Positions 34,074 through 58,899 of a stretch of 64,000 nucleotides of DNA are shown here, piece after piece (position 1 is the stretch's first letter; each line of letters opens with the position of its first letter). A program made the position numbers and the translations under genes. This DNA comes from Phapecoctavirus DIJ07P1. The stretch lies in the sequence record OZ035743.1. One strand, 5' to 3'. The notes under the pieces were generated by a model. It was not told where the DNA came from. It made no database searches and saw only the letters and a list, made by a program, of their open reading frames with translations.

Positions 34074-35840
34074 ATGTTTCCAATTCCAATATTTACTATT
34101 ATGACCAGCACTGGTGTCGTTCCTCTGCCAGCAGGTATTGTTAAAAAAGTAATCACTTTAGATTACCCAGATAATGCTGGTAATTCTAACAGCAGTTTAG
34201 CAATTTTGCTTAATGATGGTAGATTGTTTACTCAAGGCGCAAACCTTTTTGGTGAGATTGCAGATGGAACTCGTAGTGCACGATTCAATAATTTCCACTT
34301 AGCTTCTACTGTAGTAGCGGATGTGTTTACCGCAGATCGTTGTTTTGTTATTAAAACTAACAGTGGGGGATGGCAATATTCAGGATTGACAGCAGGGTTG
34401 GTAGGATCTATAGCAGCAGGTGGTACGGATGCATGTGTAACTACCTGGACCAGCTTTCCATCTGTAATAACAGGGACTATTTCTTTAGCCAATCTTAAAG
34501 AGGTTAAAGGAGGGTATAACAATACTCTCTGGTTAATGAATAGTGGTGTTCTTTATGGATCGGGTCAAAACACAGTGGGTAGTTTAGGTGCAAGCACTAC
34601 TAACGAAGTTTCTACTCCTCGTCAGATAACAAGCGCAGCAGTTGCTTTTGATGCAGGTTACAACCAATGCTCTTATGTCAACAATGTGGGAACCTTGCGT
34701 GTTTGTGGAGCTAGTAAAGGTTTAGCAGGTAATAATAACACAACAACAGCTTTTGTCAATGCCACAATATCCGCTACTGAAACAGTGTATGTCAAAGATT
34801 ACATCAATACAGTTTCCCAGACAATAGTTGTAGGAGATACCTCCGGTGGCACGGGTACAGTAAACTACTTATATGTTAGATCTAATACAGAAACAACCTA
34901 CACTAAACTGGATACCTTTGCAGCAGGTTTCTCAACATGGAAGTTTCCACCAAGCCGCCACTCTTTTTTCGTTGGGATCAATAATTCCTTGTGGGCTATT
35001 GGTAAGAACTACACTGCAAACTTAGGTTTGGGGTATGATTCTGCGAGCGGAGATCCACTCCAAGTGGGAAAACCAGTTAAACCTGAAGGAGTGGGTTCTT
35101 GGGATATAAACAAGCTCACAAGCGTTCATACGCTGAATATGGATGTTACTAACCAATTAGGTTATCAAGGAACCTTTTTCGTTTATAATGGAGATATGTA
35201 TTATTCCGGTATTTGGAAAGATGGGAAAGCCTCGTATCTGTTCAATAGTGGTCTAAACTATAATAAATTCACACCAATAGCAAGCTCCGTGATTACGGGC
35301 GATATTCTGGCAACTGGCTTAACTACAGATTCTTTAGGAATTTGTATTGTAGGTGGAACTAAACAGTTGACACATTCTGTTAGCCCAGAAGGAGGTAAAC
35401 TTTTCAATATTAAATACACTTCTTCTGCCCCTGCAAACATGACAATATCATCTACTGGTTTAATGACTTTCCATGCAGAAGGTGGTTTTGATGCAGGTAT
35501 GACAGCCTTAAACGCTGAAGGAACAACTTTATCAGATACCTCTGGAGGATATGCTTCAACATTGAGTGTTTACACCCCTAGCTTATCTGCGATGGATGTA
35601 GGAACAACACAAACAATGGTAGCAGAAATAACGCCAACAGGAGCAGCAAGCTTACCTGGTATGGTTGTTGAGTATTTCTCTAATGACCCTACGGTAGCAA
35701 CAGTTGACCCCGTTACAGGCGTTATTACAGCGGTTGCTGATGGAGGTTGTCGTATCGGTTGTAGAGCAACTTATCAAGGTGTGGTAACTGCCGAAGATAG
35801 TTCTTATCTCACAGTGAATGCTGTGGTGATTATGATTTGA
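34074..35840 (+). CDS. tail fiber/structural protein with C-terminal bacterial Ig-like (Big_2-type) domain
   Basis: C-terminal ...FSNDPTVATVDPVTGVITAVADGGCRI...VTAEDSSYLTVN resembles Big_2; G/T/S-rich body. Confidence 0.45.
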   Translation: MFPIPIFTIMTSTGVVPLPAGIVKKVITLDYPDNAGNSNSSLAILLNDGRLFTQGANLFGEIADGTRSARFNNFHLASTVVADVFTADRCFVIKTNSGGWQYSGLTAGLVGSIAAGGTDACVTTWTSFPSVITGTISLANLKEVKGGYNNTLWLMNSGVLYGSGQNTVGSLGASTTNEVSTPRQITSAAVAFDAGYNQCSYVNNVGTLRVCGASKGLAGNNNTTTAFVNATISATETVYVKDYINTVSQTIVVGDTSGGTGTVNYLYVRSNTETTYTKLDTFAAGFSTWKFPPSRHSFFVGINNSLWAIGKNYTANLGLGYDSASGDPLQVGKPVKPEGVGSWDINKLTSVHTLNMDVTNQLGYQGTFFVYNGDMYYSGIWKDGKASYLFNSGLNYNKFTPIASSVITGDILATGLTTDSLGICIVGGTKQLTHSVSPEGGKLFNIKYTSSAPANMTISSTGLMTFHAEGGFDAGMTALNAEGTTLSDTSGGYASTLSVYTPSLSAMDVGTTQTMVAEITPTGAASLPGMVVEYFSNDPTVATVDPVTGVITAVADGGCRIGCRATYQGVVTAEDSSYLTVNAVVIMI

Positions 35841-35902
35841 CGCAAGAAACTATTCCGGCGGATTGGGGATCGAAGTTCATTACAGGTTTGAAATATTACG
35901 AC

Positions 35903-35941
35903 TAATAAAAAAGGGAACCCGCAAAGGTTCCCTTTTCTTTT
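35903..35941. terminator. bidirectional intrinsic terminator at module junction
   Basis: AAAAAA-GGGAACC-CGCAAA-GGTTCCC-TTTTCTTTT between convergent gene sets. Confidence 0.65.
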
Positions 35942-35968
35942 ATAAAAACTCTTTATAAATCAATAAGA

Positions 35969-36856
35969 TCAGAACGGAATATCATCGTCGAAGTCCATTG
36001 GAGGTTCTTCTTGATTACTTGGAGTTGGTTCTGGTTGTGGTTCAGGTTTCTTAACTTCTTTCTTCTCTTCTTTCTTAGGCTGTTCTGCGGAACCACGAAT
36101 GGCAGCAGCAACTTTATCAGACAGAGCCAGAACTTTACGAGCAGAGTCGATCAGATCTTCTACAGATACAGTCTTAATGGTATGGTCTTTACAAGCATTG
36201 AGGATAGCGTGACCAACAGATGCCCCAAGATCATAATCATTAATATCAACACCACGAGATTCAGCAATTTCCGATTTCAGTGTGACAGTTGCAGATTGAA
36301 CAACCCCAGCGATATCGAAAGCATCGCCTTTAACACCATTACGAATCAGTTCCAGTGCACCATTTACTGCGTGACCAGTTTCCAGACCTACAGTATCACG
36401 TTTTTTATAGGACTGCTTAGGAGCAGCATCGTTGGAACCTTTATTACCAGAAGATTTGTTAGACTTCTGAACACCATCGGTAGACAATACTGTAATACGA
36501 GATTTTTTAGTATTGTAGTAAGTTTTACCGCCTTTATTATCAACGCGATCAATATCAATACTTACTTCTACACCTTTTTCAATAGTGATCCAATTATCAC
36601 CTTCTTTGACTTGCAGGTTTTCATAACCTTCTTTCAGTTCAATGTCACCAAGAGAAATCCAAACACCTTTCTCATCTGGTTTAGCACCTTTCTCTTTCAG
36701 AACAAGAGAGGCTCGGTGAGTTGAAACAATCGTTTTTCCTTCCCAATGAAAAGTTTTAGGTTCAGCGAATTTATCCAGTTTAACGTAGTCTACGATACCA
36801 GTTGCATAAGTTACGGTTTTGCCTTTACGATCAGTTTCAGTATTAATTACGGACAT
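35969..36856 (-). CDS. ssb: single-stranded DNA-binding protein with E. coli SSB-like acidic tail
   Basis: ends ...EEPPMDFDDDIPF; P/E/K-rich linker before tail; replication-module context. Confidence 0.55.
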   Translation of the reverse strand: MSVINTETDRKGKTVTYATGIVDYVKLDKFAEPKTFHWEGKTIVSTHRASLVLKEKGAKPDEKGVWISLGDIELKEGYENLQVKEGDNWITIEKGVEVSIDIDRVDNKGGKTYYNTKKSRITVLSTDGVQKSNKSSGNKGSNDAAPKQSYKKRDTVGLETGHAVNGALELIRNGVKGDAFDIAGVVQSATVTLKSEIAESRGVDINDYDLGASVGHAILNACKDHTIKTVSVEDLIDSARKVLALSDKVAAAIRGSAEQPKKEEKKEVKKPEPQPEPTPSNQEEPPMDFDDDIPF

Positions 36857-36872
36857 TATTATCTCCTCTACA

Positions 36873-37265
36873 TTACATTAATTTTGCACAGAAAGAGCGG
36901 AGTCTTTCCATATCATCTTGCTCTAACAGGTATTTACCTTTACCTATTCCAACTCCAATTTCACCATTAGGAAAATGAACTATTTGCACTGGGAAACCTC
37001 CGAGTTTAATTGTGGCAGCTTTGCCTTCTTCGTCTATAACGTTTCGGATTGTATCTTGCAGTGAAATGAATTCTTTGTTTGTAACAGTGGTTTCAATTAT
37101 TTCAGATGTTTCGACACGAGCAGTTAGCTTCTTGTTTCCACCTTGAATAACCAAAATTTGAAAATAAAAAGAGTTGTCAAGACCTACAACATTTTTCTCA
37201 ACTAGTGTCAAACTGGTGTAGTTTCCATAAACAGTTTCAACAGCTATCTTAGAACGTTCAGTCAT
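36873..37265 (-). CDS. hypothetical protein
   Basis: ORF track. Confidence 0.3.
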   Translation of the reverse strand: MTERSKIAVETVYGNYTSLTLVEKNVVGLDNSFYFQILVIQGGNKKLTARVETSEIIETTVTNKEFISLQDTIRNVIDEEGKAATIKLGGFPVQIVHFPNGEIGVGIGKGKYLLEQDDMERLRSFCAKLM

Positions 37266-37273
37266 TGAATGCT

Positions 37274-37303
37274 ATCCTATCATAAAATGTTTAATATTGT
37301 CAA
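37274..37303 (-). promoter_or_regulatory. sigma70-like promoter TTGACA-N18-TAGGAT (minus strand)
   Basis: reverse complement of 37274-37303. Confidence 0.35.
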
Positions 37304-37310
37304 GCTTTAA

Positions 37311-37904
37311 TTACCAAGGAATATCATCTTCTTCCAATCTGGTATCTACTTGAGGTGGACGTGGAACCTTAACCTCTTTCACAAAACGAAGATATGGGAA
37401 ACGTGTAGCAATTTTAATAACGTGTTTGGCATCTTCTCTAACATCTTTGTGCAAGAAGCAGATCCCTGTTTCCAAAGTTGTTTCAAAATCTTTAGAGTAA
37501 TAACAATCCTTCCCATCAAATGCAGCCTGGCAGATGGACAGATCAAACTCATTTAGAAAGGTTGTCATTACGCTTGGTTCCATAATCATAAGGTTGCAAA
37601 GCTGACCATCACGTTCAAACTCAAAAACGTGTTTAAGACCAGTAACACCCTCGTAGTTATCCGAAGCTTCTTTGTTTCCTAATTTACGAACATTAGTTCC
37701 CATCAAAGCAGATGCAATCAATTCTTGTATTTGCTCTTCTGATCGATGTGCAGGAAGAGACGTGTAAAAATCCAGATCACGTCCAGCAATATCAAGAATA
37801 CGCCAATCACGAACAGCGCCGCCAGCCAAGACAGAATTAGGATCAGCAATCTTTAATACGGTAAGAATTTCTTTGGCAATATTGATTTGTTTTGATTTAG
37901 TCAT
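37311..37904 (-). CDS. minimal nucleotidyltransferase (GGAVRD...DxD head domain) with acidic aromatic C-terminal tail
   Basis: LAGGAVRDWRILDIAGRDLDFY matches the CCA-adding/poly(A) polymerase head motif; ends EEDDIPW. Confidence 0.5.
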   Translation of the reverse strand: MTKSKQINIAKEILTVLKIADPNSVLAGGAVRDWRILDIAGRDLDFYTSLPAHRSEEQIQELIASALMGTNVRKLGNKEASDNYEGVTGLKHVFEFERDGQLCNLMIMEPSVMTTFLNEFDLSICQAAFDGKDCYYSKDFETTLETGICFLHKDVREDAKHVIKIATRFPYLRFVKEVKVPRPPQVDTRLEEDDIPW

Positions 37905-38115
37905 GGATACGCCCCACAGTTACTTTTACAACATCGTCCATATTAATCTCATCCCCCAAGACCTCAATAACACCTTCCTCATAAAGTCGAGCACATTCTT
38001 CCCACACTTCAGCTTCCGTCATTCCACCTGCAATCTTATTTGCAAGACCTTTAATAACATCTTCATTTTGTTCATCAACAAGAATTGAAACATTAAAGCT
38101 CACTAATTTACGCAT
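37897..38115 (-). CDS. hypothetical small protein
   Basis: ORF track. Confidence 0.25.
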   Translation of the reverse strand: MRKLVSFNVSILVDEQNEDVIKGLANKIAGGMTEAEVWEECARLYEEGVIEVLGDEINMDDVVKVTVGRIHD

Positions 38116-38292
38116 TGTTTTCTCCTTATACTTCTAAACGGAAAGTTTCTTTAGATACAAAATCGTATCCACCTTTTTCAAGCCAGTCATTGTAAACCTC
38201 ATCGGCTTGAGACTCTATCATAAAATACCGAGTGATAACTTCGTCTCCGACAATACGCACAATTTTATAGCAAATCATGATACCATTTCCCA

Positions 38293-42435: not shown

Positions 42436-42460
42436 TTTAATAAAAGGGCCGAAGCCCTTA
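42436..42460 (-). terminator. intrinsic terminator after primase-helicase (minus strand)
   Basis: AAGGGC-TTCG-GCCCTT followed by TTTATTAAAAA on minus strand. Confidence 0.55.
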
Positions 42461-44236
42461 ATAGTTGCTATCCGTAGGCAAATTAGCAGGATTGTTGAAA
42501 TACTGCTCTTTGTCATGCAGAGTTGCAGTTCTAATATCATAGTAAAACTGCCCTGCTGGACCAGTCTCTGAGAACTCACGGTTTTTTAGGATAAAGCAAT
42601 GAGTCGTATTTCGTTCTACAGGGTCTTCAGCGGCTTTATCTCGTTCCAAAGCCAAGGTAATACCAGCACCTTTAGCCAAGAAACTACTACCCATTGCATC
42701 GTCCTCTGTTAAGTGTTCATTGCCACCATTAGCCGATTTCTTAACGTGTGAGATGACGATAATAGTTATAGCATACTCTTTCATGATGCGCTTCAACCAT
42801 GTTGCTAACTCTTCCTGGGCTTGAACATCCATACCAGAAAGCAAATCAGAATAAGGGTCGATAACAAGAATTGTTACTCCAAAATAGATGATCATCTCCA
42901 AAACTTTTTCTTTGATAGACTCCACATCTGCTCCACGATCATCACACACATAAAAACGTGGTGATCCATCTTCTCTTTCGTAAAAATCTAGAATTTTTTC
43001 TTTATTCTCTTCCAGGATTTGAAATTTCTCTTCCGGTGTTTTCCTATGTAGAGGAATGTGCAGGAAAGAGGACAACAGGTTACGAGAATATTTCTTATAG
43101 GTTGCTTCCAATGACAGAATACCGAGGGTATGTTCTGGGTGTGCAACGATAATATGTTTGGTGATCTCGTTCACCATCAAAGTTTTACCGATACTGGTCT
43201 TTGCCAGGATAACTGTAATCTCTTCCTCTACTAAACCACCACCCAGCATATTTGCAGCAACACGCATAAAAGGAGGCAAGGTAATCATCTTGGATTCCAA
43301 GCATTCTAATGCAGCTTCATACAAGACATTAGAAGCATAAACACCTGCTGGGGTGTATAGACGAGCACTCCAAAAAGCTTTTACGAAATCTTTTGCACGA
43401 CCTTCTTCCAGATACTGATTGGCATCCTTAAGATCCATCTGCATACGGTAGACTTTGTTACGAGGCAGCACCTTAACAATATTTTCAAATGCCTCATTAC
43501 CCGCTTTGTCATTATCCATGCAAACAATAATCTTCTTAAATTTTTCAAAGAAAGGATATTGTGCCTGAACTTGTTTATACATACTGGTTTCACCAGTTGT
43601 GCCACTAACTACTGCTGGAAGTTCATATTTGTTGTCCAAGTTTTCAGACAGCATCTGATAAGCTGCCAGAGCATCGTGTTCACCACCTGTAATTACAACA
43701 GTATGAGAACGGTCTGCAAAACGAATTTGTCCAAAAAGATCTACATCTTTACCTACTTGACCAATAGGTTTACTGAAATCTTTAGGATGAATACGACGCT
43801 TAAAACCAACCAATTCTTTACCGATAGTAGTCGGATATAAACAACTTTCTACTACCATCTGATCCCCTTCCTGACGGTATTCATAACGAACACCATAGAA
43901 AGATGAAACTTTTTCTTTAATACCTCGATAACCACGTGGGTTGGTTGATGTTTCTTGAACAATTTTACGATGAATCTGTTTATTAAATTCCGAACCCACA
44001 ATCTCCTCCTCTTCTTCTAAAACTTCACCATTTTCTCGTAACCATTCTACGCTAGGAATAGTGTATTCACACGCAAAGCACTTAGCACCTTTATGCTCTC
44101 CATTAGAATCTAATCCATAAACCATCAGGTTATTACGAGAGCGATCCTTGCCATTTTTCATGCAGCGCGGACAACCTGTATGCCCTTCCTTGCTAAGATC
44201 AACATCAAATCCATATTTAGTTATAATGTGCGACAC
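42458..44236 (-). CDS. primase-helicase, T7 gp4-like
   Basis: N-terminal zinc ribbon CPRC...CFAC, TOPRIM-like VVITGGEHDALAAY, Walker A ILAKTSIGKT. Confidence 0.8.
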   Translation of the reverse strand: MSHIITKYGFDVDLSKEGHTGCPRCMKNGKDRSRNNLMVYGLDSNGEHKGAKCFACEYTIPSVEWLRENGEVLEEEEEIVGSEFNKQIHRKIVQETSTNPRGYRGIKEKVSSFYGVRYEYRQEGDQMVVESCLYPTTIGKELVGFKRRIHPKDFSKPIGQVGKDVDLFGQIRFADRSHTVVITGGEHDALAAYQMLSENLDNKYELPAVVSGTTGETSMYKQVQAQYPFFEKFKKIIVCMDNDKAGNEAFENIVKVLPRNKVYRMQMDLKDANQYLEEGRAKDFVKAFWSARLYTPAGVYASNVLYEAALECLESKMITLPPFMRVAANMLGGGLVEEEITVILAKTSIGKTLMVNEITKHIIVAHPEHTLGILSLEATYKKYSRNLLSSFLHIPLHRKTPEEKFQILEENKEKILDFYEREDGSPRFYVCDDRGADVESIKEKVLEMIIYFGVTILVIDPYSDLLSGMDVQAQEELATWLKRIMKEYAITIIVISHVKKSANGGNEHLTEDDAMGSSFLAKGAGITLALERDKAAEDPVERNTTHCFILKNREFSETGPAGQFYYDIRTATLHDKEQYFNNPANLPTDSNY

Positions 44237-55624: not shown

Positions 55625-56599
55625 TTAAACAGAAGCTTCTTCTTTTTCAGGGAAGATAAAGCTTGCAATAACACCAAGAGATAATGTGCCTAGAACAATC
55701 ATCAGACTTACGTTAGGGGAAATATCATGCGGGAGGAATGACCACTTGGCATGAAGTGTTTCACCGAACGGGTGATACATAAGTTTAGCACCAACAAACA
55801 CCAGAACCACAGCAACAGCTTTCTCTAAGTGAACCAGATATTTCACAGCTACACTTAACACAAAGAAAAGTGCACGTAAACCAAGAACAGCCATCAGCAT
55901 TGCAGAATAAACTAGCAGAGGTTCTTGTGTCACACCGATCACAGCCGGAACTGAATCAAAAGAGAAGACAATATCTGTAAGCTCAATAACAAACACACAA
56001 AGAAGAGCAGGAGTTGCATATTTAATACCATTCTTAATGGTGATGAACTTTTCACCATCCAGTGCATTGTGCACAGGCAGAACTTTACCTACTAAACGAA
56101 CAGCCCAATGTTTAGAGTAATCAATATCCTCTTCTTCGTCACCACCTTTGATGATAGCCACGGCAGACCAAGCTACAATCAAACCGAACAACACTTGGAC
56201 CGACCAATGAAGGTTAAACAAAGCGGTCCCTGCTGCAACAAAAATACCTCGGAAGACAATGGCTCCTGCAATCCCCCAAAGTAGAATCTTATGTTGGAGA
56301 TGTGTGCTCTTAATTCCAAAGCTTGCAAAAATTGCCATGAACACCATTAGGTTATCTACAGAAAGACTCTTTTCCAACACATAGCCACTTAGGAAAAGCG
56401 CGGCAAACTCTTTACCATGTTCTACCCAAATGAATGCGTAATACCCTAAAGCTAAAGCAATCCAAAAAACAGACCAAAGCAAAGCAGATTTAATTCCAAT
56501 TTCTTTATTCTCTTTATGACCAAAGAAATCGATACCAATAGACAATGCCAAAATACCAACTAAAACAACTACATCAATAATTGGGAAACCGAGTTGCAT
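55625..56599 (-). CDS. terC: TerC-family integral membrane protein
   Basis: multi-pass membrane protein with LSGYVLEKSLSVDNLMVF family signature. Confidence 0.8.
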   Translation of the reverse strand: MQLGFPIIDVVVLVGILALSIGIDFFGHKENKEIGIKSALLWSVFWIALALGYYAFIWVEHGKEFAALFLSGYVLEKSLSVDNLMVFMAIFASFGIKSTHLQHKILLWGIAGAIVFRGIFVAAGTALFNLHWSVQVLFGLIVAWSAVAIIKGGDEEEDIDYSKHWAVRLVGKVLPVHNALDGEKFITIKNGIKYATPALLCVFVIELTDIVFSFDSVPAVIGVTQEPLLVYSAMLMAVLGLRALFFVLSVAVKYLVHLEKAVAVVLVFVGAKLMYHPFGETLHAKWSFLPHDISPNVSLMIVLGTLSLGVIASFIFPEKEEASV

Positions 56600-56649
56600 T
56601 CTTTTCTCCTCTCTCTGCGGGGGAACTATTCCCCCGCTTCATGTGATAT

Positions 56650-56677
56650 ATCTTACTCTTTTTAAGAACTATGTCAA
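56650..56677 (-). promoter_or_regulatory. sigma70-like promoter TTGACA-N16-TAAGAT upstream of terC (minus strand)
   Basis: -35 at 56677-56672, -10 at 56655-56650; GC hairpin 56616-56637 in the leader. Confidence 0.45.
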
Positions 56678-56680
56678 CAC

Positions 56681-56902
56681 TTATTTTGTTGAATGAGAGG
56701 AAAAGATTCCTCGTAATACCGCCAGAATAAACGAAACACAAACCACGGTCCAGAAGGTTACTGGGACAGTGATATCTGCATGACCCATAACTTCAGCAAC
56801 ATAGTTGTAAGCCAGCAACAGTAACCAAGCTGGAATCAAACTAAGCATAAAAGCAATAACAAAAAAGCTTACCACTGCAACAATACCTGCAAAAACACCC
56901 AT
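56681..56902 (-). CDS. small multi-TM membrane protein
   Basis: 73 aa, two to three hydrophobic segments. Confidence 0.3.
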   Translation of the reverse strand: MGVFAGIVAVVSFFVIAFMLSLIPAWLLLLAYNYVAEVMGHADITVPVTFWTVVCVSFILAVLRGIFSSHSTK

Positions 56903-56914
56903 ACTAATCTCCTC

Positions 56915-57454
56915 TTAAAGTTTATAAATAGTCACATCGTGACCTGTTTTTACTAAAGTTTCTTCAATCATCACTTGGATGATAGCCCAATTACCTCCAG
57001 CATATCCAGCGCCAATCATAGGTAAGCCGATCTTACATTTTTGGTCACGGAGAAGCAAATCATTAGCCATAGCTATTAGTGCATCGTAAAGTGCATCATA
57101 GTCCAACTGACGACCTTTAGCATTGTATCCGTAACGGTATTGCCCGTATAGATTATATACCAAAGGGTCTGATTGTTCGTCTGGCACCCCTAAACTAAAA
57201 GAACCTAACTTACTTTGATCACCAGCCATTGTGTCTAAATCTGCCGCATATGCATAAGGGAATGCTCGTTTAATTTGCGGAGCAATTCCTGCTCCCATAT
57301 TACACATACAATTGCAACAATGAGCAATAACAGTTACTTCACCTGCTTTAGCGGCATCAATAAGATTACCTGTTTTCATTTTAAGCATTTTTAGCTCCTT
57401 ATTACAGAATGTGTTGTTTTGTGTAACGATCCAAGAATTCAAAGTTTTCAGCAT
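56915..57454 (-). CDS. macro-domain protein (ADP-ribose binding/processing)
   Basis: GNLIDAAKAGEVTVIAHCCNC..MGAGIAPQIKRAFP and GLPMIGAGYAGGNW resemble MacroD motifs; start probably internal Met. Confidence 0.5.
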   Translation of the reverse strand: MLKTLNSWIVTQNNTFCNKELKMLKMKTGNLIDAAKAGEVTVIAHCCNCMCNMGAGIAPQIKRAFPYAYAADLDTMAGDQSKLGSFSLGVPDEQSDPLVYNLYGQYRYGYNAKGRQLDYDALYDALIAMANDLLLRDQKCKIGLPMIGAGYAGGNWAIIQVMIEETLVKTGHDVTIYKL

Positions 57455-58229
57455 ACTTTGAAATTCGGTTGTAACCTTCTCCCAAACATCCGAAGAAAAG
57501 TTGCTCTACATAGTAGTGTGGCAATTGGCTAAGAATGATTTTGAAGTCTTCGTGATTTTGGCCCATAAGATACTTAATAGGACGAACAAGACACTGTGCA
57601 TCACGTTCTTCATTAATCATTTTAACAAACGCTTCTGGTGTATTGATGTAGTTAAAATTCAGTTTAGCTTCAGTATCTGCTTGATTACCTTCATATTTTG
57701 CAAAATACAAGAAGTAAACATCATTTTTAACTTGATTTTCATCAAGAATCTCAATCAGTTTGTCTTCATGAGTTCCGGTGATATTTACATCATCAATGAA
57801 CACAAGCTTCTTATCACCCCAGAATTCTTTGTTGCAGTAGAATGTATCCCCATCAATAAGTTTCTTACGACTAGCTTTATCCAAGAAACCATAATCGTTG
57901 ATATAGCTAACTTTACGATGAATAATATCCAGTTCTGCTGAACGACCTTGATCATATTGTGCTTGCAACATATTAAAGTAATTAATAAAATGATCTGTCA
58001 TCATTGTTGCAGCATTGTGCACATGGTTATAAGGAGAAGGGATGATAACAAATTGTTCCCCAATATGTTTCATTGCCACTTGAGCAAAAAACTGAAGTGC
58101 CAATTCTTTACCCATACGACGCGCAGCTTGGTTACTACCAAATTTCAATTTTGAATAGTCTTTGATATCAAAAGTAGCAGTTTCCAGGTCATCAAATTTA
58201 TTTGCAAAAATTTGAGTTTGATTACGCAT
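57402..58229 (-). CDS. type I phosphoribosyltransferase
   Basis: PRPP-binding motif KKLVFIDDVNITGTHE. Confidence 0.6.
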   Translation of the reverse strand: MRNQTQIFANKFDDLETATFDIKDYSKLKFGSNQAARRMGKELALQFFAQVAMKHIGEQFVIIPSPYNHVHNAATMMTDHFINYFNMLQAQYDQGRSAELDIIHRKVSYINDYGFLDKASRKKLIDGDTFYCNKEFWGDKKLVFIDDVNITGTHEDKLIEILDENQVKNDVYFLYFAKYEGNQADTEAKLNFNYINTPEAFVKMINEERDAQCLVRPIKYLMGQNHEDFKIILSQLPHYYVEQLFFGCLGEGYNRISKYAENFEFLDRYTKQHIL

Positions 58230-58899
58230 TTACAATTTCTCCTCTTTTAAGTTTCTCTAGTAAGTCGTTAGGGTTCTTAATATGACAGAAGTTAATCCCT
58301 ATGTCAACACATTTACCATCAAATTCTTCGCTGTCCCCAACATGTAAAATCTCTTCAGCCTTCAAAGGAATGCTTGAATATGTGGCGGTCCTAACAAAGA
58401 ATCTAGGATCTGGTTTACATAACAGATGTTCGTCTGAAAAATGCATAAATTCAAAACAATTCCAACTGTCGAACATACAAGCACGACGCAAAATATCCCC
58501 AGATATAAAATTAGTATTGCTTTTAATACTAAGATCATATTTACCAGACAAGTATAGCAAACAAACTGGCAAATCTAAAGCGATATGTGGAGGAAATTTA
58601 AGAAACCATTGCTCACACTCAAAACGCATTTGTGCAGATTCTACAGGGGTTAAACCTATCTTTCTTCCCAACATATTCCATGCATATGCTACACCTTCTG
58701 CACACCCATTTAGTGCAGCATTATCCATAATTTCTTTGGCATCTTTATATGCTTCTTTTGCCGCACGTTCAGACATTCTACCATATGTAGCAATAGTGTG
58801 CGTACGTGCATCTGCATAGTTTTGATTGGCAGAAATAAGAGTATTCCATACATCAAAAGAAATATGTTTTATTGTCATACTAGGCCCACCACGCATCAA
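58222..58899 (-). CDS. HAD-superfamily hydrolase
   Basis: motif I ISFDVWNTL, motif III CKPDPRFF, motif IV HVGDSEEFD. Confidence 0.6.
   Translation of the reverse strand: MMRGGPSMTIKHISFDVWNTLISANQNYADARTHTIATYGRMSERAAKEAYKDAKEIMDNAALNGCAEGVAYAWNMLGRKIGLTPVESAQMRFECEQWFLKFPPHIALDLPVCLLYLSGKYDLSIKSNTNFISGDILRRACMFDSWNCFEFMHFSDEHLLCKPDPRFFVRTATYSSIPLKAEEILHVGDSEEFDGKCVDIGINFCHIKNPNDLLEKLKRGEIVNA

Follow-up and report, generated by a model that had tools for sequence, protein, structure and literature searches.

The end of the replication operon of Phapecoctavirus DIJ07P1: an SSB-like protein with the E. coli SSB tip and a small nucleotidyltransferase with a similar C-terminal tail

The window analysed is a stretch of 64,000 nucleotides from Phapecoctavirus DIJ07P1 (sequence record OZ035743.1), in which two nearby minus-strand genes encode proteins with similar acidic, aromatic-ended C-termini: a 295-aa protein resembling SSBs (proteins that bind single-stranded DNA) and a 197-aa nucleotidyltransferase (NTase; Table 1). 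Both open reading frames (ORFs) and both tails had been described in the original prediction, and their coordinates, translations and stops were confirmed on checking. The region forms the distal end of a replication operon in a phAPEC8-like myovirus (Phapecoctavirus, subfamily Stephanstirmvirinae), and positions 35800–38200 of the window are 97–99% identical to ~65 Phapecoctavirus genomes, including phAPEC8 and ESCO13. Read 5′ to 3′, the minus-strand operon consists of a primase-helicase (42458–44236), two ORFs, a family A DNA polymerase, three small ORFs, the NTase, a 130-aa ORF and the SSB-like gene. The order polymerase, NTase, 130-aa ORF and SSB is kept throughout the Stephanstirmvirinae and beyond, and the trio of NTase, 130-aa ORF and SSB is syntenic in Citrobacter phage Tr1, phage Antha and a metagenomic phage with a 49%-identical SSB. 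Distant NTase homologues (P0011 and P0138) occur in other gene contexts, so the linkage of the NTase to the replication module is not universal.

Table 1. Features at the end of the replication operon and at related loci. Positions refer to the window unless a locus or genome is named; residue numbers refer to the encoded protein.
Feature	Position	Strand	Remarks
Intrinsic-terminator-like hairpin, bidirectional	35909..35936		11-bp stem followed by a T run; separates the convergent tail gene (+) and SSB gene (-)
SSB-like protein, 295 aa, PHROG 4477 family	35969..36856	-	OB-like domain, helical domain, disordered linker, host-type SSB C-terminal tip
Tip PPMDFDDDIPF of the SSB-like protein	35972..36004	-	Identical to the final 11 residues of E. 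coli SSB; TGA next
P/E/K-rich disordered linker, residues 254-284	36005..36097	-	AF2 pLDDT 43-69
Four-helix domain, residues ~156-253	36098..36391	-	Conserved motifs ETGHAxNGA and DLGASVGHA
N-terminal beta domain, residues 1-130, OB-like fold	36467..36856	-	AlphaFold model
130-aa ORF, PHROG 16560	36873..37265	-	Single ORF separating the NTase from the SSB gene
Nucleotidyltransferase, 197 aa	37311..37904	-	Stand-alone, class-II-like, remotely Gad2-related
Tip DDIPW of the NTase	37314-37328	-	Tip conserved, linker not
Flexible linker and tip of the NTase, residues 178-197, VKVPRPPQVDTRLEE-DDIPW	37314..37373	-	pLDDT falls from 66 to 49
Folded catalytic core of the NTase, residues 1-177	37374..37904	-	pLDDT mostly >90
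E95 within FEF, candidate third carboxylate	37617-37625	-	Invariant in the 10 closest sequences
DLD, residues 43-45	37770-37778	-	Catalytic carboxylates
GGAVRD, residues 28-33	37806-37823	-	Motif A
Family A DNA polymerase, 865 aa	38533..41130	-	Upstream neighbour in the module polymerase, small ORFs, NTase, 130-aa ORF, SSB
SSB extension loci	L005:3880-3933; L012 (Citrobacter phage Tr1):5064-6035; L013 (phage Antha):5026-5973
SSB extension loci	L014:6001-6975; L015:6001-7161; L018-L060		L018-L060 are 43 IMG/VR loci
HNH endonuclease genes	L005:3905-4399; L012:6007-6501; L014:6968-7396; L015:7171-7713
BIS47 primase-helicase	L059:5365-7440		Equals vB_KpnM_BIS47 138200-140275

The 295-aa protein terminates in ...EPTPSNQEEPPMDFDDDIPF, with a TGA stop directly after. 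That this tail is an exact copy of the C-terminal tip of E. coli SSB (SSB-Ct) was borne out over 11 residues, both in a PDB profile search, where the E. coli SSB chains 1eqq and 7f2n align to the last residues of the protein as NEPPMDFDDDIPF, and in an hhalign comparison with E. coli SSB, in which only the last 15 residues were aligned (80% identity). Apart from the tail, the sequence has no apparent homology to bacterial SSB (PF00436): a Pfam search found no SSB domain, matches to SSBs in the PDB and NCBIfam were confined to residues ~254–295, and the PHROG assignment was to a function-unknown family (phrog_4477), with the SSB families touching only the last ~45 residues. The label of SSB given earlier therefore stands on the tail and on an OB-like fold in the AlphaFold model (61 homologues; mean predicted local distance difference test [pLDDT], 83), but not on sequence homology to the host protein. 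In that model, the OB-like N-terminal domain is followed by a disordered segment (residues 133–149), a four-helix domain and a linker with pLDDT < 50 at residues 261–271. The four-helix domain, for which profile searches of the PDB and Pfam found no relatives, could serve in oligomerisation or in partner binding, and a BFVD fold search with the SSB-like protein matched uncharacterised phage proteins only. As a tblastn search found no E. coli-type OB domain elsewhere in the phage genome, no SSB candidate other than the 295-aa protein is left. Its C-terminus is xPF in 103 of 120 homologue clusters and exactly DDDIPF in 61, with 17 of the 120 having the IPF buried beneath an extension of 14–17 residues. 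Overall, the modelled fold and the conserved C-terminus point to a non-canonical SSB family in which the host tip has become fixed and which would bind single-stranded DNA (ssDNA).

The 197-aa protein is predicted to be a compact nucleotidyltransferase of the Pol-beta superfamily, class-II-like and with the GG..R and DxD signature intact. Seven residues (G28, G29, R32, W34, D43, D45 and Y84) do not vary among 42 sequences reaching down to ~22% identity. The earlier assignment to a GGAVRD-type NTase was supported by the fold, the catalytic motifs, PHROG nucleotidyltransferase families (3e-63 and 3e-11) and a profile of the 42 sequences that matched the CCA-adding enzyme 6ibp (E = 9e-4), whereas the Pfam model PolyA_pol (PF01743) stayed below threshold (15.5 bits compared to a gathering cut-off of 23) and spanned the segment from GGAVRD to DLD only. 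The NCBIfam CCA equivalogs scored 12 bits (cut-offs, 290–439). Failure of a profile search to support the motif was to have counted against the original prediction; taken literally, the outcome is borderline, with the stronger support coming from PHROG and the 42-sequence profile. The best fold and profile matches are the head domains of CCA-adding enzymes and poly(A) polymerases, and the structural model has this head-domain fold but stops after neck-like helices, giving a head and a partial neck but no body or tail domain to hold tRNA. The nucleotide-selecting EDxxR motif is altered to EDAKH, in which His alone is invariant. An exhaustive search with a hidden Markov model returned 1052 clusters at 50% identity (E ≤ 1e-3), nearly all of 170–230 aa, and the family is thus a large group of small stand-alone enzymes. 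Most of the 58 homologues whose source was traced came from metagenome assemblies, and several records carry the annotation 'tRNA nucleotidyl transferase / poly(A) polymerase'.

The nearest functional lead for this NTase is Gad2, a ~400-aa anti-Gabija protein of SPbeta-like phages that is itself a predicted nucleotidyltransferase (10.1101/2023.05.01.538930) and whose mechanism was still unknown in 2026 (PMC12904381). Using verified Gad2 sequences of 394–400 aa from Supplementary Table 10 of 10.1101/2023.05.01.538930, hhalign aligned the NTase family profile to the Gad2 N-terminal domain over 117–120 columns (probability, 83.7–87.7%; E = 3e-6 to 8e-6). Precomputed matches to PF26128, the Pfam 'Gad2' family, were present in 17 of the 58 NTase homologues, including the tail-bearing P0009 (one match was labelled 'faint'), and the Pfam search run here gave no match to PF26128. 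The sequence comparisons suggest that the two are remotely related, which gives a lead on function but does not make the NTase a family member. Some homologues of Gad1, also an anti-Gabija protein, from RF39-infecting phages contain the internal string ...IDDDIPFEHKE... (Supplementary Table 9 of 10.1101/2023.05.01.538930), so that an SSB-Ct-like string is found in a second anti-Gabija family too, possibly by coincidence.

The C-terminus of the NTase reads ...RLEEDDIPW, then stop, and its last 20 residues are predicted to be a disordered, flexible tether. The similarity to the SSB tail that had been pointed out earlier proved to lie in a conserved short linear motif carried on this linker. All 10 clusters at 59–99% identity end in DDIPW, with one variant (DSFPW), while the 12–18 residues before the tip vary in sequence and in length (PRPPQVDTRLEE, CPAPQADSN, RRGAEKATPKLEDM). 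The tip recurs in the NTase of Citrobacter phage Tr1 (35% identity; ...HSKPKDIPW), in P0138 (...ESNDFPW) and in the more distant P0182 (...NFPDDIPW) and P0281 (...DSSNDIPW). Because the tip is kept while the linker diverges, [DN]D[IF]PW is under purifying selection independently of the linker. Across 200 members of the NTase family, 13 end in PW, two in PF and one in PY, with the other 184 lacking such a tail; as it is missing from most of the family, including the sister genus Justusliebigvirus, the tail is an accessory and not a core requirement. It is a module under purifying selection that several lineages have acquired or retained. The NTase tail has the sequence features of an SSB-Ct-type peptide, namely an acidic run, Ile-Pro, a terminal aromatic residue, a flexible tether and conservation independent of the flanking sequence.

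Using a strict tail pattern ([DE]2+..[ILVM]P[FWY] at the C-terminus), it was possible to ask how rare such ends are. The SSB-like and NTase ORFs were the only matches among the 236 ORFs ≥50 aa of the window, and the same two were the sole strict matches among the 923 ORFs ≥40 aa of the relative BI-EHEC, which has a complete 151-kb genome. With a composition-based expectation for BI-EHEC of 0.008 ORFs for a loose pattern and 1e-4 for DDIP[FW], the pairing of the two tails is far beyond chance. One looser match in BI-EHEC, the small subunit of ribonucleotide reductase (NrdB, ...DDEELDF), provided a positive control for the scan, as the NrdB C-terminus is a classical docking tail. The two groups of tails differ strictly in their last residue, which is Trp in 13 of 13 IP-type NTase tails and Phe in 103 of 103 free SSB tails, suggesting tuned affinity or partner selectivity and not simple redundancy.

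The best reading of this evidence, offered tentatively and with slightly less than even confidence, is that the NTase is delivered by its DDIPW tail to the sites at which SSB tails dock. The tip would act as a docking peptide of the SSB-Ct type, with its acidic residues, Ile-Pro and an aromatic residue bearing the free carboxylate, and would insert into a basic-rimmed hydrophobic pocket of the kind that receives SSB tails. Docking would tether the NTase to an SSB-tail-binding protein at ssDNA intermediates, or the NTase would compete there with the SSB; the partner may be a host SSB-interacting protein or a component of the phage replisome. From its docked position, the enzyme would add a nucleotide either to the 3′ end of a nucleic acid or to its docking partner, and the likely purpose would be protection of phage replication or counter-defence, a role suggested by the link to Gad2. 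Several points weigh against such delivery. The substitution of Trp for Phe may be ill-fitting in some known SSB-Ct pockets, the tail is absent from 184 of 200 family members, and the NTase of Justusliebigvirus (phage Antha) is tailless despite the same gene order. The 17 of 120 SSB homologues with a buried IPF indicate that a free SSB-Ct is not universally required, which weakens the case for a single shared docking site. Gad2, a protein of 400 aa, is only a remote homologue.

An unlikely account, though one to be taken seriously, has the NTase docking by its tail to a dedicated partner at a Trp-specific site not used by SSB tails, with the resemblance to SSB-Ct arising from convergent chemistry; such a partner could be the 130-aa neighbour, a host defence protein or the helical domain of the phage SSB. 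The strict division between Trp and Phe speaks for this account, as does the conserved synteny of NTase, 130-aa ORF and SSB, and unrelated docking tails of like chemistry do exist, as in NrdB. However, the D-D-I-P common to the tip and SSB-Ct goes beyond general chemistry, and Justusliebigvirus keeps the trio with a tailless NTase, so that the tail is not needed for an interaction within the trio.

Delivery to SSB-tail docking sites has also to be weighed against a role in RNA repair, in which a minimal tRNA nucleotidyltransferase or 3′-end repair enzyme would restore CCA ends damaged by host defence and the tail would only tune localisation or stability. This is improbable. It draws on the matches to CCA-adding and poly(A) polymerase heads, the GenBank annotation found in several records, the presence of 10 phage tRNAs and the precedent of phage CCA-adding enzymes as RNA-repair tools (PMC7824862). 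The enzyme of 197 aa, however, has no tRNA-binding body or tail domain, its EDxxR motif has become EDAKH, the Pfam and NCBIfam CCA models fall far below threshold, and its gene sits in a DNA-replication module and not near the tRNA cluster. In BI-EHEC, that cluster of 10 tRNA genes lies at genome positions 56263–58391 (L009:7263–9391), far from the NTase module and outside the window, which itself contains no tRNA gene. All 10 genes encode the 3′ CCA, so an NTase is not needed for maturation of the phage tRNAs; together with the missing tRNA-binding domains, this disfavours a CCA-adding role.

In T4 gp32, T7 gp2.5 and E. coli SSB, the acidic tail folds back on the protein's own OB fold, and the NTase tail could in the same way be an intramolecular autoinhibitor that occupies the substrate groove until displaced. 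The ~15-residue flexible linker could reach the active site and such behaviour is established for SSB-type tails, but the catalytic core is itself acidic (isoelectric point, 5.45; net charge, −5), which disfavours electrostatic autoinhibition, most homologues function without a tail, and a Pro-Trp placed strictly at the C-terminus suggests recognition of the free carboxylate by a pocket; this explanation is very improbable. A fortuitous or neutral resemblance of a functionless acidic C-terminus, for which the shortness of the motif (five residues) and its absence from most of the family might speak, is scarcely credible given the conservation pattern, with a tip expected ~1e-4 times per genome that is kept beside a linker changed in length and diverged past alignment and that recurs in lineages at ~35% identity or less.

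Near 36 kb the GC skew changes sign and a plus-strand tail gene meets the minus-strand replication operon head-on, with the hairpin between them marking the end of the operon. The tail-fibre-like protein encoded there (window 34074–35840, plus strand) has 588 aa compared to 891 aa in ESCO13 and most relatives, probably reflecting a swap of a host-range module. A difference of ~844 bp from ESCO13, at one point suspected inside the SSB gene, was located instead in the tail gene, just ahead of the convergent terminator, and is accounted for by the shorter tail-fibre-like protein. Between the NTase stop and the 130-aa ORF, a gap of 45 nt contains a near-consensus sigma-70-like promoter (TTGACA, 18-nt spacer, TG-TAGGAT; window 37274–37303, minus strand); promoter-like sites in the region are no commoner than in shuffled sequence, and the site is a pointer only. 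The 130-aa protein keeps its position between the NTase and the SSB in all Stephanstirmvirinae-type loci examined and has 21 residues invariant over four divergent sequences, and profile searches of the PDB, Pfam and NCBIfam found no significant relatives.

Many phage SSBs run past the IPF with a conserved extension of 14–17 residues, composed of AP[IV]GLQY and 6–10 mostly hydrophobic residues (for example, ...DDDIPFAPIGLQYPALLNCM and ...GRNFLHCF) and often with a Cys at position −2. The extension does not occur on the SSB-like protein of the window. Beyond the SSB-like family, it is present on canonical E. coli-type SSBs (40–56-kb phages), small OB proteins, a 268-aa protein and a primase-helicase. 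As the codons of the APIGLQY peptide vary synonymously, selection acts on the peptide. With the extension in place, the Phe carboxylate read by SSB-Ct pockets would be buried, and its role could be that of a masked tail, of a pro-peptide or of a second docking motif; a literature search for APIGLQY found no relevant report. A group I intron was rejected as the source of the 15-aa SSB extension, since Rfam found no intron in L005 and the extension is translated in frame with codons that vary synonymously. In several large myoviruses, an HNH gene starts within or just after the SSB extension, behind the IPF codon, and looks like a homing-type insertion at the 3′ end of the SSB gene. An HNH gene follows in L005, Tr1, L014 and L015, but most of the 43 IMG/VR loci have other downstream genes, and a mere homing-endonuclease scar was rejected as a general explanation. 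The HNH protein of L015 ends in ...EIKIPF, and the window phage and ESCO13 have no HNH gene, with a stop and a terminator in its place.

One protein recovered by an IMG/VR scan for the coding pattern of PF-APIGLQY is the DnaB-type primase-helicase (691 aa) of the rV5-like myovirus BIS47, a Klebsiella phage; it ends in ...GPDDDTPF-APIGLQYAKHAIYVI. Across rV5-like phages of Klebsiella, Salmonella and Cronobacter, the primase-helicase ends in DDDTPF followed by the APIGLQY extension.

Bacterial genome maintenance has its central address label in the tails of SSBs, and several defence systems are triggered by phage SSBs. If the NTase is indeed delivered to SSB-tail docking sites, phages would direct catalytic activities, and not just their SSB, to the host SSB interaction hub. 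A more specific proposal, rather improbable as a whole, is that this Gad2-like mini-NTase uses its Trp-ended mimic of the SSB tail as an address label to the readers of SSB tails, which (or whose DNA) it would nucleotidylate. The targets could then be host SSB-interacting nucleases and helicases, or defence complexes that sense SSB or DNA ends, and this would constitute a new mechanism of counter-defence or hijacking and, for the Gad2 enzyme family, a first way into its mechanism. On this proposal, SSB-Ct-like peptides would more broadly be a portable addressing code in phage replication modules, with DDIPW on the NTase, DDDTPF on a primase-helicase, and IPF plus APIGLQY extensions on at least five unrelated protein bodies as examples. 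As a bait peptide for the partner, and hence the substrate, a tail that mimics the SSB label would make the Gad2-like NTase family (~1000 clusters at 50% identity) experimentally tractable. The SSB-like protein, for its part, defines a widespread uncharacterised architecture (OB-like domain, orphan helical domain and host-type tip) in large coliphages used in phage therapy.

Compared to Gad2 (Yirmiya et al. 2023/2024), the NTase appears to have a remotely related, phage-encoded Pol-beta-type nucleotidyltransferase domain, with the common motifs AGGA...DxDxY and FDx[ST]xC. The C-terminal half of Gad2 is missing from the 197-aa protein, which does not have the full ~400-aa architecture, while Gad2 has neither the RD of GGAVRD nor an SSB-like tail. 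Compared to the class II enzymes (CCA-adding enzymes and PAP I) and the stand-alone head domain 2la3, the NTase is half-size and without body and tail domains, has no RRD and an altered EDxxR, and does not reach the Pfam and NCBIfam thresholds.

Phage and plasmid SSBs that copy the host tip and docking tails on several proteins of one replisome are already known, and a literature search turned up neither an SSB-Ct-like tail on a nucleotidyltransferase nor the peptide DDIPW. The window SSB has the same 11-residue end as bacterial SSB (SSB-Ct, MDFDDDIPF) and the same layout of OB fold, linker and tip, but its OB domain has no detectable PF00436 homology, it has an additional four-helix domain, and its linker is P/E/K-rich and not G/Q/P-rich. 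The NTase tip has the D-D-I-P and C-terminal aromatic residue of SSB-Ct, but sits on an enzyme and ends in Trp. In phage HK620, recruitment of the phage recombinase Sak4 has been shown by experiment to depend on the SSB tail (PMC5928155), likewise a case of a non-canonical phage SSB recruiting a partner via an SSB-Ct-like tail. The HK620 system differs in its tail (NDYPPF), in its SSB family (DUF669) and in having no second tailed protein. In T7, the Phe-ended C-termini of the SSB (gp2.5) and the helicase-primase (gp4) dock at shared sites on the gp5 polymerase. The module described here resembles that replisome in having a family A polymerase and two proteins with similar acidic, aromatic-ended tails, but the second tailed protein is an NTase and not a helicase, the tail copied is the host SSB-Ct and not a phage-specific sequence, and the arrangement is known here from sequence. 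The analogy with T7 drawn in the original prediction has a natural counterpart in the DDDTPF of the BIS47 primase-helicase, which is a case of an SSB-Ct-like motif on a replisome protein other than SSB and is the closest parallel to T7.

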